A stretch of 64,000 nt of DNA, from the sequence record KP869100; one strand, written 5' to 3'. This document shows, piece after piece, positions 49,741 through 54,492 of this stretch. The DNA is from Escherichia typing phage 1. Below the pieces are notes generated by a model. It was not told the DNA's origin. It did not search any database and saw only the letters and a program-made list of their open reading frames with translations. Position 1 is the stretch's first letter; every line of letters begins with the position of its first letter. A program made the translations under genes and the position numbers.

Positions 49741-49775
49741 AAAAAGGCTCCTTTTTACGGGAGCCTTAAATTTTA
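49741..49775. terminator. bidirectional intrinsic terminator between convergent blocks
   Basis: GGCTCC..GGGAGCC hairpin flanked by AAAAA and TTAAATTTTATTTTT. Confidence 0.55.
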
Positions 49776-50144
49776 TTTTTCAGTATTCTTTGTGTTCTTT
49801 TCAGTAATAGCTTGCAAGGCTGATACTGATTGAGCCAGATTGTTCACACTGTCAGAGAATTTATCAAGGGTTTTGGTAAGTTTTGCGTTTTCACCCTTAA
49901 CATTCTCTAACTGAACTTTCTGGTTCTCCATCCCTAGCTGAATCAATCTCATGTCAGACTGTAAATCACGAATAGCTGAATAGTTACTTTTGGAATAATT
50001 ATCTAGCTGCTGTAACTTTGTTGTGACAGACACTTCCTGCTTACCACTTGAGACTTGCATAGTGGTATACATCCCAATAACACTAAAAATACCAACTACA
50101 ATTGCACCAATATTATTTTTAAAAGCTTCCTCTAGCCACTTCAT
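49773..50144 (-). CDS. membrane-anchored coiled-coil protein (holin/antiholin- or spanin-like candidate)
   Basis: 123 aa; TM IGAIVVGIFSVIGMY then helical region. Confidence 0.45.
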   Translation of the reverse strand: MKWLEEAFKNNIGAIVVGIFSVIGMYTTMQVSSGKQEVSVTTKLQQLDNYSKSNYSAIRDLQSDMRLIQLGMENQKVQLENVKGENAKLTKTLDKFSDSVNNLAQSVSALQAITEKNTKNTEK

Positions 50145-50339
50145 TTATTTCTCCCCCTTAAAAGCTTTTTCTAAGTTATCTACGAACTCATCATCAATAG
50201 GTGTATCTGTTTTACTCGCAAGGTATCTTGCAAGCTTAAAGAACACTTTCTCAATCATGTATTCACTTAGAAGGGATAAAATGAGTTTCCAGAAGAAGCT
50301 ACCTAGATTTTTTAGAAGAATTGCTAGGATTGTAGGCAT
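50145..50339 (-). CDS. small membrane protein (holin candidate)
   Basis: 64 aa; hydrophobic ILAILLKNLGSFFWKLILSLL then charged tail. Confidence 0.4.
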   Translation of the reverse strand: MPTILAILLKNLGSFFWKLILSLLSEYMIEKVFFKLARYLASKTDTPIDDEFVDNLEKAFKGEK

Positions 50340-50418: not shown

Positions 50419-52965
50419 TTAAGCAGTTCTTACCCAAGCCATTAACTTATAGAACTGGTTAGTAACACTAAATGCTGAACCAGAACCAGTACCACCTGTG
50501 TTACCGCTAACTGTGTGGCTGTGAGCACCAATACCAACAGTGTGGCTGTGGTTACCTGTTGTATTCGTTACACCAGACCAGTTTCTTGATGCGTTGAAGT
50601 TGACAGGGATACCATTAGTAAAGTTGTTACCAGTATACCCTTTAGAACCTGCCTGACTACCGAGGTAGAATGCACCACTTGCTGTGTAGAAGCTACTAGC
50701 GTCACTTCTGAAGTAACCAAATGAACCAGTAATCTCCATAGTACCTCTGTTGTGGTTGTGGTTACCAGTTGTGCTAGAAGTCTTAGTACCATAGTCAAAT
50801 GATGAAGTAGTAGCAGAGAATCTGTGCGTGTGTGAAGGTAAGTTACCAACAGACAACGTTACAGAGTCTGAACCACCAGTTGTAGCAACATCTGAACCGT
50901 TTGCTGCTGCAATTCTAATAGTTCTACCAACACCATTATTCAGGTACGTCCAAGTTAACCCAGGAAGTGCTGTGTTTGGGTTGACATTACTGTTAAACCA
51001 CGTCACAATACCTACTGGATAGATTTTATTCAGGTCTGTAGAGTCACTAATTGCTTCTGCAATCTTCTGGTCAGTCTCTGCTTTAGTGTATGCACCAATA
51101 TCTGAAGGGGTTGGTTTTTGCAAACTTGTGTAGTATTTTGCAATTGTACCCTTCACAATACCTTGTGGAGCATCATCAAATGTCTGTGGGACTTCAAACA
51201 ACTGTACACTTGCATTACTAGAAGACTGAACCCTTGTCGTTGTGCTGTTTTGATACGTACCAGCAAGATAGTAAATATCATAGGTGTCTCCAGAAGTATT
51301 CACATAACCAATATCCCTGACAATGGTGTTCTCTGATGTTCTCCAAGCAACAACATTTAAGCCCTTTGGATTGTTATTTGAAGTTCGCAGAACAATTTCA
51401 CATTTACCTGCTTGGTTTGGTGTATTAATATTAAAACCTGACCCACCAAATACCTCAATAACAGCAGTGGATGCTGATTGTGGCATCACAACAGTGGCAA
51501 TTTTAGCCCACTTATCAGTGTTTCCCACATTGAAGCTAGTGCTTCTGATTCTTAGGTATCTACTATCACTAGCACTTTGCGTAAAGTATCTAGCATCTAA
51601 GTTAGAGAAATCTGAAGGTTGAACTTGTCCAGCAATAGTCAATGTTTTGTTAATGTATGATGTTGTATTCCCGAGAACCAATTGGGTTCCAGAATAACTG
51701 TTATTTAGGGTAACATCATTCGTGTCAGCACCACCAACACCAATCCACCATCTTGATACATTAGTAGTGTCCACACCACGAATATATAATGGTCTATTCT
51801 GAGTAGAGTTTTTAACAATCAGACCTTCATTATCCGTAACAACTGTCTGTACACCATTAAAAGTATTCCTTGCATTAGTTCTTGCAATCGTACTTAATGT
51901 TGCTACCGGAATATATCTAGAGTCAATGTTAGCCCAATCTGAAGGTTGGACTTGTCCAGTGATTTGCACAGTTTTATTGATACCAATAGTAGTACCTAGT
52001 GAAACCTGTGAACCTGTAAGGTAGTTATAAATGTTTAGACGTGTCTCGTCAGAATCTGTACCAACATACCATTTATTTGTTCCATCAGACTTCTTACCGA
52101 GAATGTAAAGTGCTGTATTTGCATCAGTATTCTGCAAAGTAATGGCATTAGCATTCTTCTTAGCAACAAGGTTAGTGAAAGTGTTAGCACCTGTAAAAGT
52201 ATTATTGCCAGCTAACTGTGCAAATCTCTGATTAGCTGCCGTCTGAGTAAAGTATCTAGCATCTAAGTTAGAGAAATCAGAAGGCTGAACTTGACCAGTG
52301 ATTGCTAAAGACTTATTAACAGAGATATTACTTGCAACAGTCAAGACTGAGTTGTATTTGCTATTGTACAGCTTTACTTCGTCAGAGCCATTACTACCAA
52401 TACCAACCCACCATCTAGCCGAACCATCTAGGTTTACACCTTCAATATATTGTGCATTATTTGCATTTTGGTTTCTAAGGCGAAGTAAGTTAGCATCACC
52501 TTGAATGTTCTGAGTCCCAGAGAATGTGTTTGTGATAGCAAGTCTTGCATATCTTGCGTCATTCTCTTCATTAGTTCTCATACCAAGCTCATTAGGACTT
52601 GGCTTATTCAGAGTATGATAAACAGTTGCTGACCTTGAAGCATCTGCAATAGTTAGTTTAAGACCACTTGCGTTAAGTTTAAAAGTCTTTAAAACATCCC
52701 CAATAGTAATCTCAGAAGAACCTGTAGGGTCAAATACTGCCTTACCACCGTAAAGTAACTTGACAATACCTAAATCCCCCGTCATAGTGCTTCCAGCAAT
52801 CTGAACAAACCTTTCTAGTTTGAAGGAAGCTAAGAAGTCTTGATAGGTCATTCTACGGTCTTCGTCACCCAACATTTCAGGTCTTTTCTTAACTCTGATG
52901 TGCAATAGGTCTTCTGAACGAATTGTGTCGATTGAGTTTAACTGACTCAATTTGTAATCTGCCAT
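50419..52965 (-). CDS. tail fibre protein (long, His-rich C-terminal tip)
   Basis: Start trimmed to the ATG at 52965 behind an AGAGGA SD; Gly/Ser/Thr/Asn-rich repeats; C-terminal HTH/HNH/HSH triplets; C-terminus homologous to the upstream fibre. Confidence 0.75.
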   Translation of the reverse strand: MADYKLSQLNSIDTIRSEDLLHIRVKKRPEMLGDEDRRMTYQDFLASFKLERFVQIAGSTMTGDLGIVKLLYGGKAVFDPTGSSEITIGDVLKTFKLNASGLKLTIADASRSATVYHTLNKPSPNELGMRTNEENDARYARLAITNTFSGTQNIQGDANLLRLRNQNANNAQYIEGVNLDGSARWWVGIGSNGSDEVKLYNSKYNSVLTVASNISVNKSLAITGQVQPSDFSNLDARYFTQTAANQRFAQLAGNNTFTGANTFTNLVAKKNANAITLQNTDANTALYILGKKSDGTNKWYVGTDSDETRLNIYNYLTGSQVSLGTTIGINKTVQITGQVQPSDWANIDSRYIPVATLSTIARTNARNTFNGVQTVVTDNEGLIVKNSTQNRPLYIRGVDTTNVSRWWIGVGGADTNDVTLNNSYSGTQLVLGNTTSYINKTLTIAGQVQPSDFSNLDARYFTQSASDSRYLRIRSTSFNVGNTDKWAKIATVVMPQSASTAVIEVFGGSGFNINTPNQAGKCEIVLRTSNNNPKGLNVVAWRTSENTIVRDIGYVNTSGDTYDIYYLAGTYQNSTTTRVQSSSNASVQLFEVPQTFDDAPQGIVKGTIAKYYTSLQKPTPSDIGAYTKAETDQKIAEAISDSTDLNKIYPVGIVTWFNSNVNPNTALPGLTWTYLNNGVGRTIRIAAANGSDVATTGGSDSVTLSVGNLPSHTHRFSATTSSFDYGTKTSSTTGNHNHNRGTMEITGSFGYFRSDASSFYTASGAFYLGSQAGSKGYTGNNFTNGIPVNFNASRNWSGVTNTTGNHSHTVGIGAHSHTVSGNTGGTGSGSAFSVTNQFYKLMAWVRTA

Positions 52966-53011
52966 TATGAATTTTCCTCTTAAAAGGGGCTTTATAGCCC
53001 CTGTAAAGAAA

Positions 53012-54187
53012 TTAAGCTGTTCTCTGCCACACATACACTACAAAAGATGGCTGCTCAACACTGAAAGCTTGACCACCACCAACAGAACCAGATGTCCCTG
53101 AGTGTGTATGCTCAGAGCTAGAAACAGTAACAGTGCCTGTATGACTGTGCGAACCAATATTAACAGTGTGGCTGTGAGCACCAATTGCGACAGTATGGCT
53201 ATGAGCACCAGATGATGCAGTTGTACCTGAGAAGCTATGGGTGTGAGCACCAGCTAAATCAGTATACATAGCATTACCAACACCAGCATCAGCAGATGCA
53301 GTAATAGCGTTTGTGCCACCCCTATCATTACCCCTCATAGGGACTCTATGGTTGTGGTTACCAGCATTACTTGTTGTGCCACTAAACGTGTGAGTGTGAG
53401 CACCAGCACTATTAGTCGTTTTTGTACCGTAATCAAAAGTTGATGTACTTTTTGAACCATAATCAAAACTAGAGATAGATACACTTGCAGAGTGTGTATG
53501 ACCACCACCTGTTAGATAGATAGAGTGAGTATGTGCTGGTAAATTATTATTTGTTAATGCTACAGTCTGAGAACCAAACGTTGAACCAACAGGTCTAGAA
53601 TCTGTATCATAACCAACTAGTGCTCTACCTTTAGAAACTAACTCCCAAGTACCTCCACAAAGCAAGTAAGTGGATGGGTTAGCAGAGTTAACAGATAGAT
53701 GAATAGTCCCTACTGGATATGACGCTTGGATAGCTTTGTATAAATTATTAACTGCTTTCGCGGTAGCATACTTATCAGCATCTTCATTGTACAGATTAGA
53801 TGTTGTCCAGTTCTGAACATTACTTAAACCAACCTGTGCTTTCGTTGTATTGTGTGGGTTACTTTTGTCGTCAATATGTTGCTGAATTAAGTTATTCACT
53901 TCCTCTGACGACATAATTTGTAGATTTGCTCTTGCCTCAGCAACACTTACAATATCTGACAAGTTATTAGCTGCAACTAATTGAAGAGAGTTAATAACAT
54001 TATCAAGACCTACTTGTGATTTAGTTACACCATGAGGGTTATTCCTCAAAGATGCGTGAGGTGCTAACAACTGCTCAAGCGTACATCTTTTATCCTCAAC
54101 ACCTTGCTTAAGGTGGAAGATATCACTCAAATCAACTGGTAAGGCCGCTTGTGGCAAGGCACTAATTTGAATTTCACCTACTGCCAT
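53012..54187 (-). CDS. tail fibre protein (short paralogue)
   Basis: 391 aa; His-rich C-terminal repeats (AHTHSFSGTT, GAHSHTVAIGAHSHTV) and a C-terminus matching the other fibre. Confidence 0.7.
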   Translation of the reverse strand: MAVGEIQISALPQAALPVDLSDIFHLKQGVEDKRCTLEQLLAPHASLRNNPHGVTKSQVGLDNVINSLQLVAANNLSDIVSVAEARANLQIMSSEEVNNLIQQHIDDKSNPHNTTKAQVGLSNVQNWTTSNLYNEDADKYATAKAVNNLYKAIQASYPVGTIHLSVNSANPSTYLLCGGTWELVSKGRALVGYDTDSRPVGSTFGSQTVALTNNNLPAHTHSIYLTGGGHTHSASVSISSFDYGSKSTSTFDYGTKTTNSAGAHTHTFSGTTSNAGNHNHRVPMRGNDRGGTNAITASADAGVGNAMYTDLAGAHTHSFSGTTASSGAHSHTVAIGAHSHTVNIGSHSHTGTVTVSSSEHTHSGTSGSVGGGQAFSVEQPSFVVYVWQRTA

Positions 54188-54189
54188 TA

Positions 54190-54492
54190 TTAAGCTCCTA
54201 CATATTCATATGTGTAAAGGTTTCTTGTACTTGTTGATGCAGTCCCTGTCTCAGACTTAATGAGATTCCAGCCATTAGCCACTAAATCTGGTTGCTCAGT
54301 TGCATATGAACGAACTTCACCAACAGTGCCATTTACTTTATTCAGCAGGTAGTTGATAATATAGTTGAACCACTGTCTACCCATAGGCTCACCCTTTAAA
54401 AGACCTGTCTCTTGAACTTCCGGTGGTGGTAAAACTTTTAACTGATTACCATCAGTATCTACTTCGTTTGTAGACCAATTTAGAACTGCCAT
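54190..54492 (-). CDS. tail fibre/baseplate-associated small protein
   Basis: 100 aa; coupled to neighbours in the fibre-baseplate module. Confidence 0.4.

Follow-up and report, generated by a model that had tools for sequence, protein, structure and literature searches.

Two tail fibers of Escherichia phage wV8 share a predicted T4 gp37-type tip carried on different shafts

The 64-kb window analyzed here (the whole stretch of DNA, 64,000 nucleotides) is that of Escherichia phage wV8, a member of Felixounavirus, and is 99.9% identical to NC_012749. It contains two neighboring tail fiber genes, named STF (short tail fiber) and LTF (long tail fiber), both of which are on the minus strand (Table 1). 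They come last in the order wedge 2, wedge 1, 100-aa LTF platform protein, STF, and LTF (ORFs of 489, 284, 100, 391, and 848 aa), which is identical to that of gp23-gp27 in Bas63 (MZ501086), a phage of the same genus. STF matches the tail fiber family PHROG 2097 (E = 1e-138) and is 75% identical to both of its orthologues, Bas63 gp26 and Felix O1 gp76. LTF matches the tail fiber family PHROG 4277 (1363 bits), and its orthologues are Bas63 gp27 and Felix O1 gp77, the latter a virion protein as assessed by mass spectrometry (PMC3185647). The mechanically called LTF ORF starts at 53034 and overlaps the STF gene. The annotated start, the ATG at 52965 (MADYKL...), has a Shine-Dalgarno sequence (AAGAGGA) upstream, and the N terminus that it defines is also kept in Felix O1 and Bas63. 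We therefore place the LTF start at 52965, which gives a protein of 848 aa instead of 871. The hairpin between the two genes has a stem that is conserved in Felix O1 and Bas63; it was missed by a simple terminator scan because its T tail consists of only four T.

Table 1. Coordinates in the window of the two fiber genes of wV8 and of their features
Feature	Position	Strand	Residues (aa)	Basis
STF, short tail fiber gene, wV8 gene 82	53012..54187	-	391	ORF; NC_012749 annotation (tail fiber protein)
STF shaft, two NPHxxTKxQVGLxNVxN motifs	53810..54040	-	50-66 and 110-126	motif search
STF gp37-type tip: collar, needle, head, back to collar	53015..53770	-	140-391	
STF ascending needle strand, 4 HxH (219, 230, 264, 278)	53348..53533	-		alignment
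STF head region, His-free, variable, presumed receptor-binding	53246..53347	-	281-314	alignment with T4 head segment
STF descending needle strand, 5 HxH (315, 329, 338, 347, 360)	53102..53245	-		alignment
STF C-terminal segment GGGQAFSVEQPSFVVYVWQRTA	53015..53077	-		aligned with T4 gp37 ending IAFNYIVRLA
Hairpin GGGGCTATAAAGCCCC, then TTTT, between STF and LTF genes	52982..53001	-		NC_012749 annotation: Rho-independent terminator
LTF, long tail fiber gene, wV8 gene 83	50419..52965	-	848	NC_012749 annotation
LTF three tandem ~100-aa shaft repeats	51586..52551	-	139-460	Pfam PF20744 gp37_trimer, 3 stretches, E = 2.1e-75
LTF module, swapped shaft domain	51139..51504	-	488-609	no alignment to Felix O1 or Bas63 LTFs
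LTF gp37-type tip: collar, short 4-HxH needle, large head cassette, back to collar	50422..51120	-	616-848	2XGF match, Pfam Gp10_C, alignments
LTF head cassette (NRGTMEITGSFGYF...NASRNWSGVTNTTG), His-free	50551..50751	-	739-805	alignments

Across wV8, Felix O1, and Bas63, the N termini of the fibers are 92-96% identical (96% to both relatives for the N-terminal 75 aa of LTF), and the tips ~60-75%. When the N-terminal domains of STF and LTF were compared with each other by profile comparison, the probability was 8%; a likeness between them has been reported at the structure level only, in Bas63 (PMC12609058). As the preliminary description of this locus had noted, LTF carries internal repeats ending in GQVQPSDxxNxDxRY. 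This motif occurs exactly three times (aa 224, 337, and 446), in each case closing one of the repeat units, which are 42-45% identical to one another by direct alignment. Although LTF self-BLAST returned no repeats at E ≤ 1e-3, both Pfam and direct alignment did detect them. In addition, a junction motif, P(S/T)(D/P)…D.(R/K)(Y/I), is found five times (aa 122, 228, 341, 450, and 618). Together, the three PF20744 stretches and five junction motifs suggest that the LTF shaft follows the Felixounavirus layout of five repeat domains separated by helix-turns; the Bas63 LTF likewise has a shaft of repeated beta-helix domains with helix-turn motifs between them. One part of the shaft differs, since BLASTP alignments with the Felix O1 and Bas63 LTFs break at residue 487 and resume at 610. 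PHROG tail fiber families match aa 477-628, and neither the LTF shaft nor the aa 470-625 module gave anything meaningful when compared with PDB sequences.

The preliminary description had also proposed that the two fibers end in a common His-rich C-terminal module with HxH triplets and near-identical last residues. This observation was confirmed, and all the strings that it quoted are present. Nine HxH motifs are found in STF (residues 219, 230, 264, 278, 315, 329, 338, 347, and 360) and four in LTF (712, 736, 806, and 815 in the 848-aa numbering). Whole-protein shuffles contained on average 1.4 (STF) and 0.10 (LTF) such motifs, and in none of 20,000 was the observed count of either protein reached. 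The C termini of the two proteins proved homologous: as assessed by BLASTP, LTF 645-871 (871-aa ORF numbering) aligns with STF 136-391 over ~270 positions, with 30% identity (E = 2e-17). The endings are QAFSVEQPSFVVYVWQRTA and SAFSVTNQFYKLMAWVRTA, of which AFSV…W.RTA is common to both. STF and LTF carry the only two copies of this tip in the window. The HxH columns are kept across 58 homologues of STF and 68 of the LTF tip, including ones with as little as ~36-45% identity. In STF, the His columns 315-349 are kept in 56-58 of the 58 homologues, and W387 and R389 are invariant among them.

Both C-terminal regions match the structure of the T4 gp37 tip (2XGF), with E = 1.8e-26 for STF (aa 145-362) and E = 2.5e-7 for LTF. 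In T4, the metal in this tip is iron, and each HxH level consists of six histidines from three chains that coordinate one ion. All seven HxH of the T4 tip are aligned with STF motifs: residues 219, 264, and 278 correspond to T4 H883, H915, and H929, and residues 315, 329, 338, and 347 correspond to H966, H980, H989, and H998. The motifs are grouped in two clusters, on the outgoing and returning strands, as in T4, and the likeness extends to HxH spacing (14, 9, and 9), to the FDYGTK and GIGAHxHTV blocks, and to a C-terminal AF..VR.A. The two extra STF motifs are distributed one per needle strand, residue 230 lying inside an insertion that pairs with the insertion holding residue 360. The LTF motifs match four of the seven (equivalents of T4 883, 915, 980, and 989); the equivalent of T4 998 is missing, and the ascending strand is shortened by about as many residues. 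Such paired changes in strand length are what a hairpin-like needle keeping its register would show.

Before the needle there is a collar domain, with a Pfam Gp10_C match and a weak fold match to T4 gp10, gp11, and gp37. The C-terminal domain of T4 gp10 (PF21939, PDB 2FKK), gp11, and gp12 are collar-related, but gp10, a wedge protein of the baseplate, lacks a long HxH needle. AlphaFold2 monomer models are of low confidence (mean pLDDT 60.8 for the LTF tip and 67.9 for full STF), with only the collar well predicted.

Two details of the preliminary description were corrected by the comparison with T4. The last residues, which had been placed at the tip, correspond in the alignment to the end of T4 gp37 (AFNYIVRLA), whose chain returns to the collar. 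The C-terminal strand is modeled with high pLDDT (~88 at STF 385-389). Furthermore, the His-rich part corresponds not to the receptor-binding tip but to the needle, i.e. the stem, and the presumed receptor-contacting head is formed by the stretch poor in His that separates the ascending from the descending HxH cluster. This stretch is 34 aa long in STF, where it varies among homologues, and 67 aa long in LTF; in both fibers, its pLDDT in the models is <50. The sequence of the LTF head cassette is unrelated to the T4 head and without a solved homologue. Taken together, the homology and the 2XGF matches support the view that two fibers with different shafts have in common a T4-like tip whose HxH motifs are of the metal-binding type. 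This finding of the preliminary description is correct but already published for Felixounavirus. Indeed, the Felix O1 genome paper (Whichard et al. 2010) reported that the C termini of the prototype orthologues gp76 and gp77 are similar to T4 gp37 (PMC3185647), and a cryo-EM study of Bas63 (Escherichia phage JohannRWettstein; Sci Adv 2025) described collar-needle-head tips in both gp26 and gp27 (PMC12609058).

The three phages nevertheless differ in their tips. We counted seven (STF) and six (LTF) HxH in Bas63, the same as the published numbers (PMC12609058), versus nine and four in wV8. Whereas the STF of wV8 is 75% identical to that of Bas63, LTF is 61-70% identical in the aligned parts, has a larger, His-free head, and carries a different module at aa 488-609. 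Similarly, the Felix O1 LTF has a small head and six HxH, whereas in wV8 there is a cassette and four HxH. Alignments show that, relative to the Felix O1-type LTF, this cassette replaces the small head together with the two HxH nearest to it, the collar and C terminus remaining 95-100% identical to those of Felix O1. The cassette is present in 59 phage records. It shares 84-95% identity, measured per 20-column block, with gp37 of the T-even Mosigvirus vB_EcoM-ZQ3, and ~78% with E. coli prophage tail fibers (cluster P0070). In these proteins, the bounds of the cassette are the same (FDYGTK...GNHNH and GNHxHTVGIGAHxH), but the collar and C terminus are T4-type (…NIAFNYIVRLA), and identity to wV8 outside the cassette is only 14-40%.

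We propose that STF and LTF are very probably two lateral fibers of a Felix O1-like myophage, each ending in a T4 gp37-type tip. The model joins what was computed in wV8 (homology, motif alignment and conservation, matched indels, and mosaicism) to trimers, metal occupancy, attachment sites, and receptor class taken from T4 and Bas63. Each fiber would be a homotrimer, as reported for the Bas63 orthologues (PMC12609058), docked on the baseplate by its conserved N-terminal domain. The docking site in Bas63 is wedge protein 2 for STF and, for LTF, the 100-aa platform protein, whose gene lies immediately upstream (PMC12609058). The shafts would be fiber-specific, with helix-turn motifs in STF and, in LTF, five domains of which three are the PF20744 repeats. 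In the tip, the chain is predicted to leave the collar, run out along the needle, form a small distal head, and come back along the needle to end at the collar, with HxH motifs on both outgoing and returning strands. By analogy with T4 and Bas63, the needle would thus be a metal-stapled six-stranded rod holding the head toward the cell surface, with nine (STF) or four (LTF) HxH levels compared with seven in T4. For Felixounavirus, the surface target would be LPS, and specificity is expected to lie in the head, which is poor in His. On either side of the head, conserved GxHxH and FDYGTK blocks may double as joints for the exchange of head cassettes between phages.

The setting of the module also differs from T4, where it ends a 1026-aa distal half-fiber joined through gp36, gp35, and gp34. 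In wV8, it ends complete fibers of 391 and 848 aa that, by analogy with Bas63, would sit on the baseplate itself. A tblastn search of the 64-kb window with the T4 chaperone gp38 gave no homologue (best E = 0.95), so that assembly may differ from T4. The two genes downstream match only PHROGs of unknown function, with no Tfa-type Pfam family.

How the two fibers came to share a tip can be read in two ways. The preliminary description spoke of one tip duplicated onto two shafts. Sharing on different shafts is borne out by the alignments, but duplication is uncertain, because at ~30% identity between the tips, and with the STF tip nearer to T4 gp37 (40% identity) than to its own LTF, either a duplication long ago or the separate acquisition of modules would account for the data. 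In the latter case, STF and LTF would have acquired gp37-type tips independently by horizontal transfer, and would be paralogues only as members of one widespread tip family. We regard this as plausible, at somewhat less than an even chance. The family does occur widely, in T-even phages, lambda stf, and many enterobacterial prophages, and transfer of the LTF head cassette among Felixounavirus, T-even phages, and prophages is demonstrable. On the other hand, the pair is kept throughout the genus, and both tips have features absent from T4, such as the ending G-SG-AFSV...W.RTA, which is longer than T4 AFNYIVRLA, and LP(A/S)HTH at the first HxH. These common features suggest, for the collar and C terminus, a common ancestor nearer than T4.

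It is less likely, and in our view improbable, that STF is the functional equivalent of T4 gp12, deployed from beneath the baseplate to bind LPS irreversibly once the long fibers are attached, instead of a second lateral receptor-binding fiber. T4 gp12 also contains a collar-related domain, and this has an HxH metal site. The name STF and its location on the wedge protein in Bas63 (PMC12609058) would fit such a role. However, in Bas63, STF has a length of 430 Å and, like LTF, is folded upward against the sheath, not under the baseplate (PMC12609058), and, according to the BASEL paper, a short-fiber role in this genus was never explored. Moreover, a PDB search with STF gave no sequence match to gp12, the best match being the long-fiber tip of gp37. 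Homology of STF to gp12 in sequence or fold, for which the gp12 receptor-binding domain (1OCY) served as reference, was rejected. Finally, it is hardly credible that the His/Gly/Ser/Thr-rich segments are low-complexity, disordered linkers lacking a defined metal-binding fold: despite their biased composition and the low monomer pLDDT of needle parts and head, which an intertwined trimer is expected to give anyway, this reading is effectively refuted by strong homology to the crystallized, iron-containing needle 2XGF, by conservation of each His pair by position in distant homologues, by a regular 9- or 14-residue spacing identical to that in T4, and by cryo-EM density for the needle in Bas63 (PMC12609058).

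The shared gp37-type tip in itself has little significance beyond confirming existing annotation. However, the fibers determine the host range of this phage, which serves in O157:H7 typing and biocontrol, and it is therefore worth telling the residues of the scaffold (collar, HxH needle, and C-terminal strand) from those of the exchangeable head, which helps host-range engineering or prediction. The mapped bounds of the cassette show where swaps between Felix O1-type, T-even, and prophage fibers can be made. Recombination at conserved motifs is an idea reportedly put forward by Tétart, Desplats and Krisch (1998). We tentatively suggest, at only just short of an even chance, that the wV8-type LTF has its own variant of the gp37 tip, in which a ~67-residue His-free cassette has taken the place of the small head and of two HxH levels, i.e. 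the outer third of the metal-stapled needle, and that this cassette moves between Felixounavirus LTFs, T-even gp37, and E. coli prophage fibers by recombination at FDYGTK/GxHxH. If this is true, the cassette would be the determinant adapting such phages to O157/STEC and Shigella hosts.

Escherichia phage wV8 (genus Felixounavirus; NC_012749) matches the segment 50419-54187 at 99.9% identity; its gene 82 and gene 83, which span the segment, encode a short tail fibre (STF, 391 aa) and a long tail fibre (LTF, 848 aa). NC_012749 labels both as tail fiber proteins and likens them to the Felix O1 'putative tail fiber protein GP37'. On the same strand, STF and LTF are preceded by genes for the hub and spike of the baseplate, then for a pair of wedge proteins, of which one has a Baseplate_J domain, and last for a 100-aa protein; gp20-gp27 of the relative Bas63 have this order too. 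By synteny, the 100-aa protein is the counterpart of Bas63 gp25, described in the cryo-EM study as the LTF platform and as a homologue of T4 gp9 (PMC12609058).

Both ORFs, and all ORF strings quoted in the preliminary description, were found in the window. The longest LTF ORF begins at an ATG (53034) inside the 3' end of STF; the stretch 52966-53034 on the minus strand encodes 23 spurious residues. The true start is ATG 52965 (MADYKL…), which is preceded by an AAGAGGA ribosome-binding (Shine-Dalgarno) site and yields an N terminus also found in Felix O1 and Bas63. The stem of the hairpin upstream of this site, a terminator by wV8 annotation, is kept in both these phages, and it might reduce expression of LTF relative to STF. 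LTF occupancy is partial on Bas63 virions (PMC12609058), and a tie between the two is speculative.

The His-rich C termini, near-identical last residues and internal LTF repeats noticed previously were all confirmed. Of the 24 His in STF, 18 belong to its nine HxH motifs, and LTF contains four such motifs. Shuffled whole proteins contained on average 1.4 (STF) and 0.10 (LTF) HxH, and none of 20,000 shuffles matched the observed counts. When aligned, the C-terminal regions of the two fibres share 30% identity over about 270 positions (E=2e-17), both ending with AFSV…W.RTA; no third copy of the tip is present in the window. In LTF, GQVQPSDxxNxDxRY occurs three times, each time ending a unit of roughly 100 aa. 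These units display 42-45% pairwise identity and are matched three times by Pfam PF20744 (E=2e-75).

Both fibres match the sequence of the T4 gp37 receptor-binding tip (crystal structure 2XGF), STF over aa 145-362 (E=1.8e-26) and LTF with E=2.5e-7, and both contain a collar domain of the gp10/gp12 type (PF21939). T4 HxH 883, 915, 929, 966, 980, 989 and 998 align with STF 219, 264, 278, 315, 329, 338 and 347, respectively; the outgoing and the returning strand each have an insertion that holds one of the two extra STF motifs (230 and 360). LTF retains counterparts of T4 883, 915, 980 and 989; it has none for 998, on the returning strand, and its outgoing strand is shortened by a similar number of residues. 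Such paired length changes are to be expected of a hairpin-like needle keeping its register. In T4, Fe ions are coordinated by the HxH motifs along a needle of six strands, with a small head that contacts the receptor at the point where the chain turns back (PMC12609058). Judged by this layout, the His-rich sequence would be the stem and not the tip proper, so that the proposed T4-type HxH tip stands as to homology and motif alignment and is corrected as to anatomy. Contact with the receptor should then fall to the His-poor stretch that separates the HxH clusters (STF aa 281-314, LTF aa 739-805). The last residues shared by STF and LTF align with T4 …AFNYIVRLA, the segment returning to the collar.

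In homologue sets extending down to about 36-45% identity, 56-58 of 58 STF sequences have His at the motifs of aa 219, 278, 329, 338 and 347, all 58 have it in both columns of motif 315, and three of the four LTF motifs are invariant in 68 LTF-tip homologues. STF homologues have 7-11 HxH per protein (most commonly 9) and LTF-tip homologues 4-7. Conservation of His columns at this depth excludes the scenario in which these segments are disordered, unconserved linkers. The interpretation as a gp37-like tip is thus correct, with the above correction, and was already published for Felixounavirus. The 2010 genome paper noted a C-terminal resemblance of Felix O1 gp76 and gp77 to T4 gp37 (PMC3185647). 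The 2025 cryo-EM study of Bas63 described STF gp26 (430 Å) and LTF gp27 (630 Å) with structurally similar baseplate-binding N-terminal domains, a gp37-like tip (collar, HxH needle and head) at both C termini, and five beta-helix repeat domains in the LTF shaft (PMC12609058). Our recount of Bas63 HxH, HHxH included, gave 7 (STF) and 6 (LTF), equal to the published numbers.

That the two fibres share a tip is supported by their 30% C-terminal identity and the 2XGF matches; as to its origin by duplication, the evidence points both ways. An ancient duplication would account for the longer AFSV…W.RTA ending and for LP(A/S)HTH at the first HxH, which both tips possess and T4 lacks, although STF-LTF tip identity is just about 30%. 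Separate, modular acquisition is suggested by the STF tip, whose identity to T4 gp37 (40%) exceeds that to the LTF of the same phage; the same two common features stand against it. Compared as profiles, the N-terminal domains of the two fibres matched with a probability of 8%.

Elsewhere in the tail genes, the spike protein has a third HxH site, unrelated to the fibre tips. Its position matches that in the puncturing-apex protein of Bas63, which likely coordinates iron ions (PMC12609058). Of the two small genes 3' of LTF, one encodes a hydrophobic protein of 64 aa, the other a protein of 123 aa that is hydrophobic near its N terminus and has weak, sub-threshold matches to Pfam coiled-coil families. 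The products bear no resemblance to gp38 or Tfa, which are fibre chaperones; lysis and fibre assembly are possible roles. The terminator beyond them sits between the minus-strand late structural operon and the converging plus-strand td/frd genes.

Features in and around the tail fibre genes (window coordinates)
Feature	Position	Strand	Remarks
Bidirectional hairpin terminator, strong	49744-49767	both	AAGGCTCC…GGAGCCTT, T-runs on both sides
Two small genes 3' of LTF	49773-50339	-	PHROG matches only, all of unknown function
LTF head cassette, 67 aa	50551-50751	-	aa 739-805, His-free, NRGTMEITGSFGYF…NASRNWSGVTNTTG
Second swapped shaft module of LTF	51139-51504	-	aa 488-609; several PHROG tail-fibre families match
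Hairpin GGGGCT-ATAA-AGCCCC, then TTTT	52982-53001	-	Between STF stop and LTF ribosome-binding site
100-aa protein	54190-54492	-	No Pfam family; sole match a PHROG of unknown function
Baseplate spike protein, 207 aa	57237-57860	-	C terminus …NEHTHHYYW (H188, H190)

LPS is the reported receptor of the genus, Bas63 requiring an intact LPS core (BASEL paper), and receptor screens gave Felixounavirus no receptor assignment because of this LPS use.

By sequence comparison, the wV8 LTF is a mosaic: the collar, the C terminus and the proximal part of the needle share 95-100% identity with the LTF of Felix O1, whereas the head and two head-proximal HxH of Felix O1-type LTF are replaced by the 67-aa cassette. 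The second swapped module, in the shaft, fails to align with the LTF of Felix O1 or Bas63 and has no match among solved structures. The same head cassette occurs in gp37 of the T-even Mosigvirus ZQ3 (84-95% identical) and in tail fibres of prophages from E. coli and Citrobacter (about 78%), in each case in the context of a T4-type collar. It was found in 59 phage records, mostly Felixounaviruses from O157/STEC E. coli or Shigella hosts. Its breakpoints fall on conserved TSSFDYGTK…GNHNH and GNHxHTVGIGAHxH blocks. That conserved motifs serve as recombination joints is an older idea from work on T-even phages, with which these positions agree. At the sequence level, the shared cassette is evidence for cross-family exchange of a presumed receptor-binding cassette.
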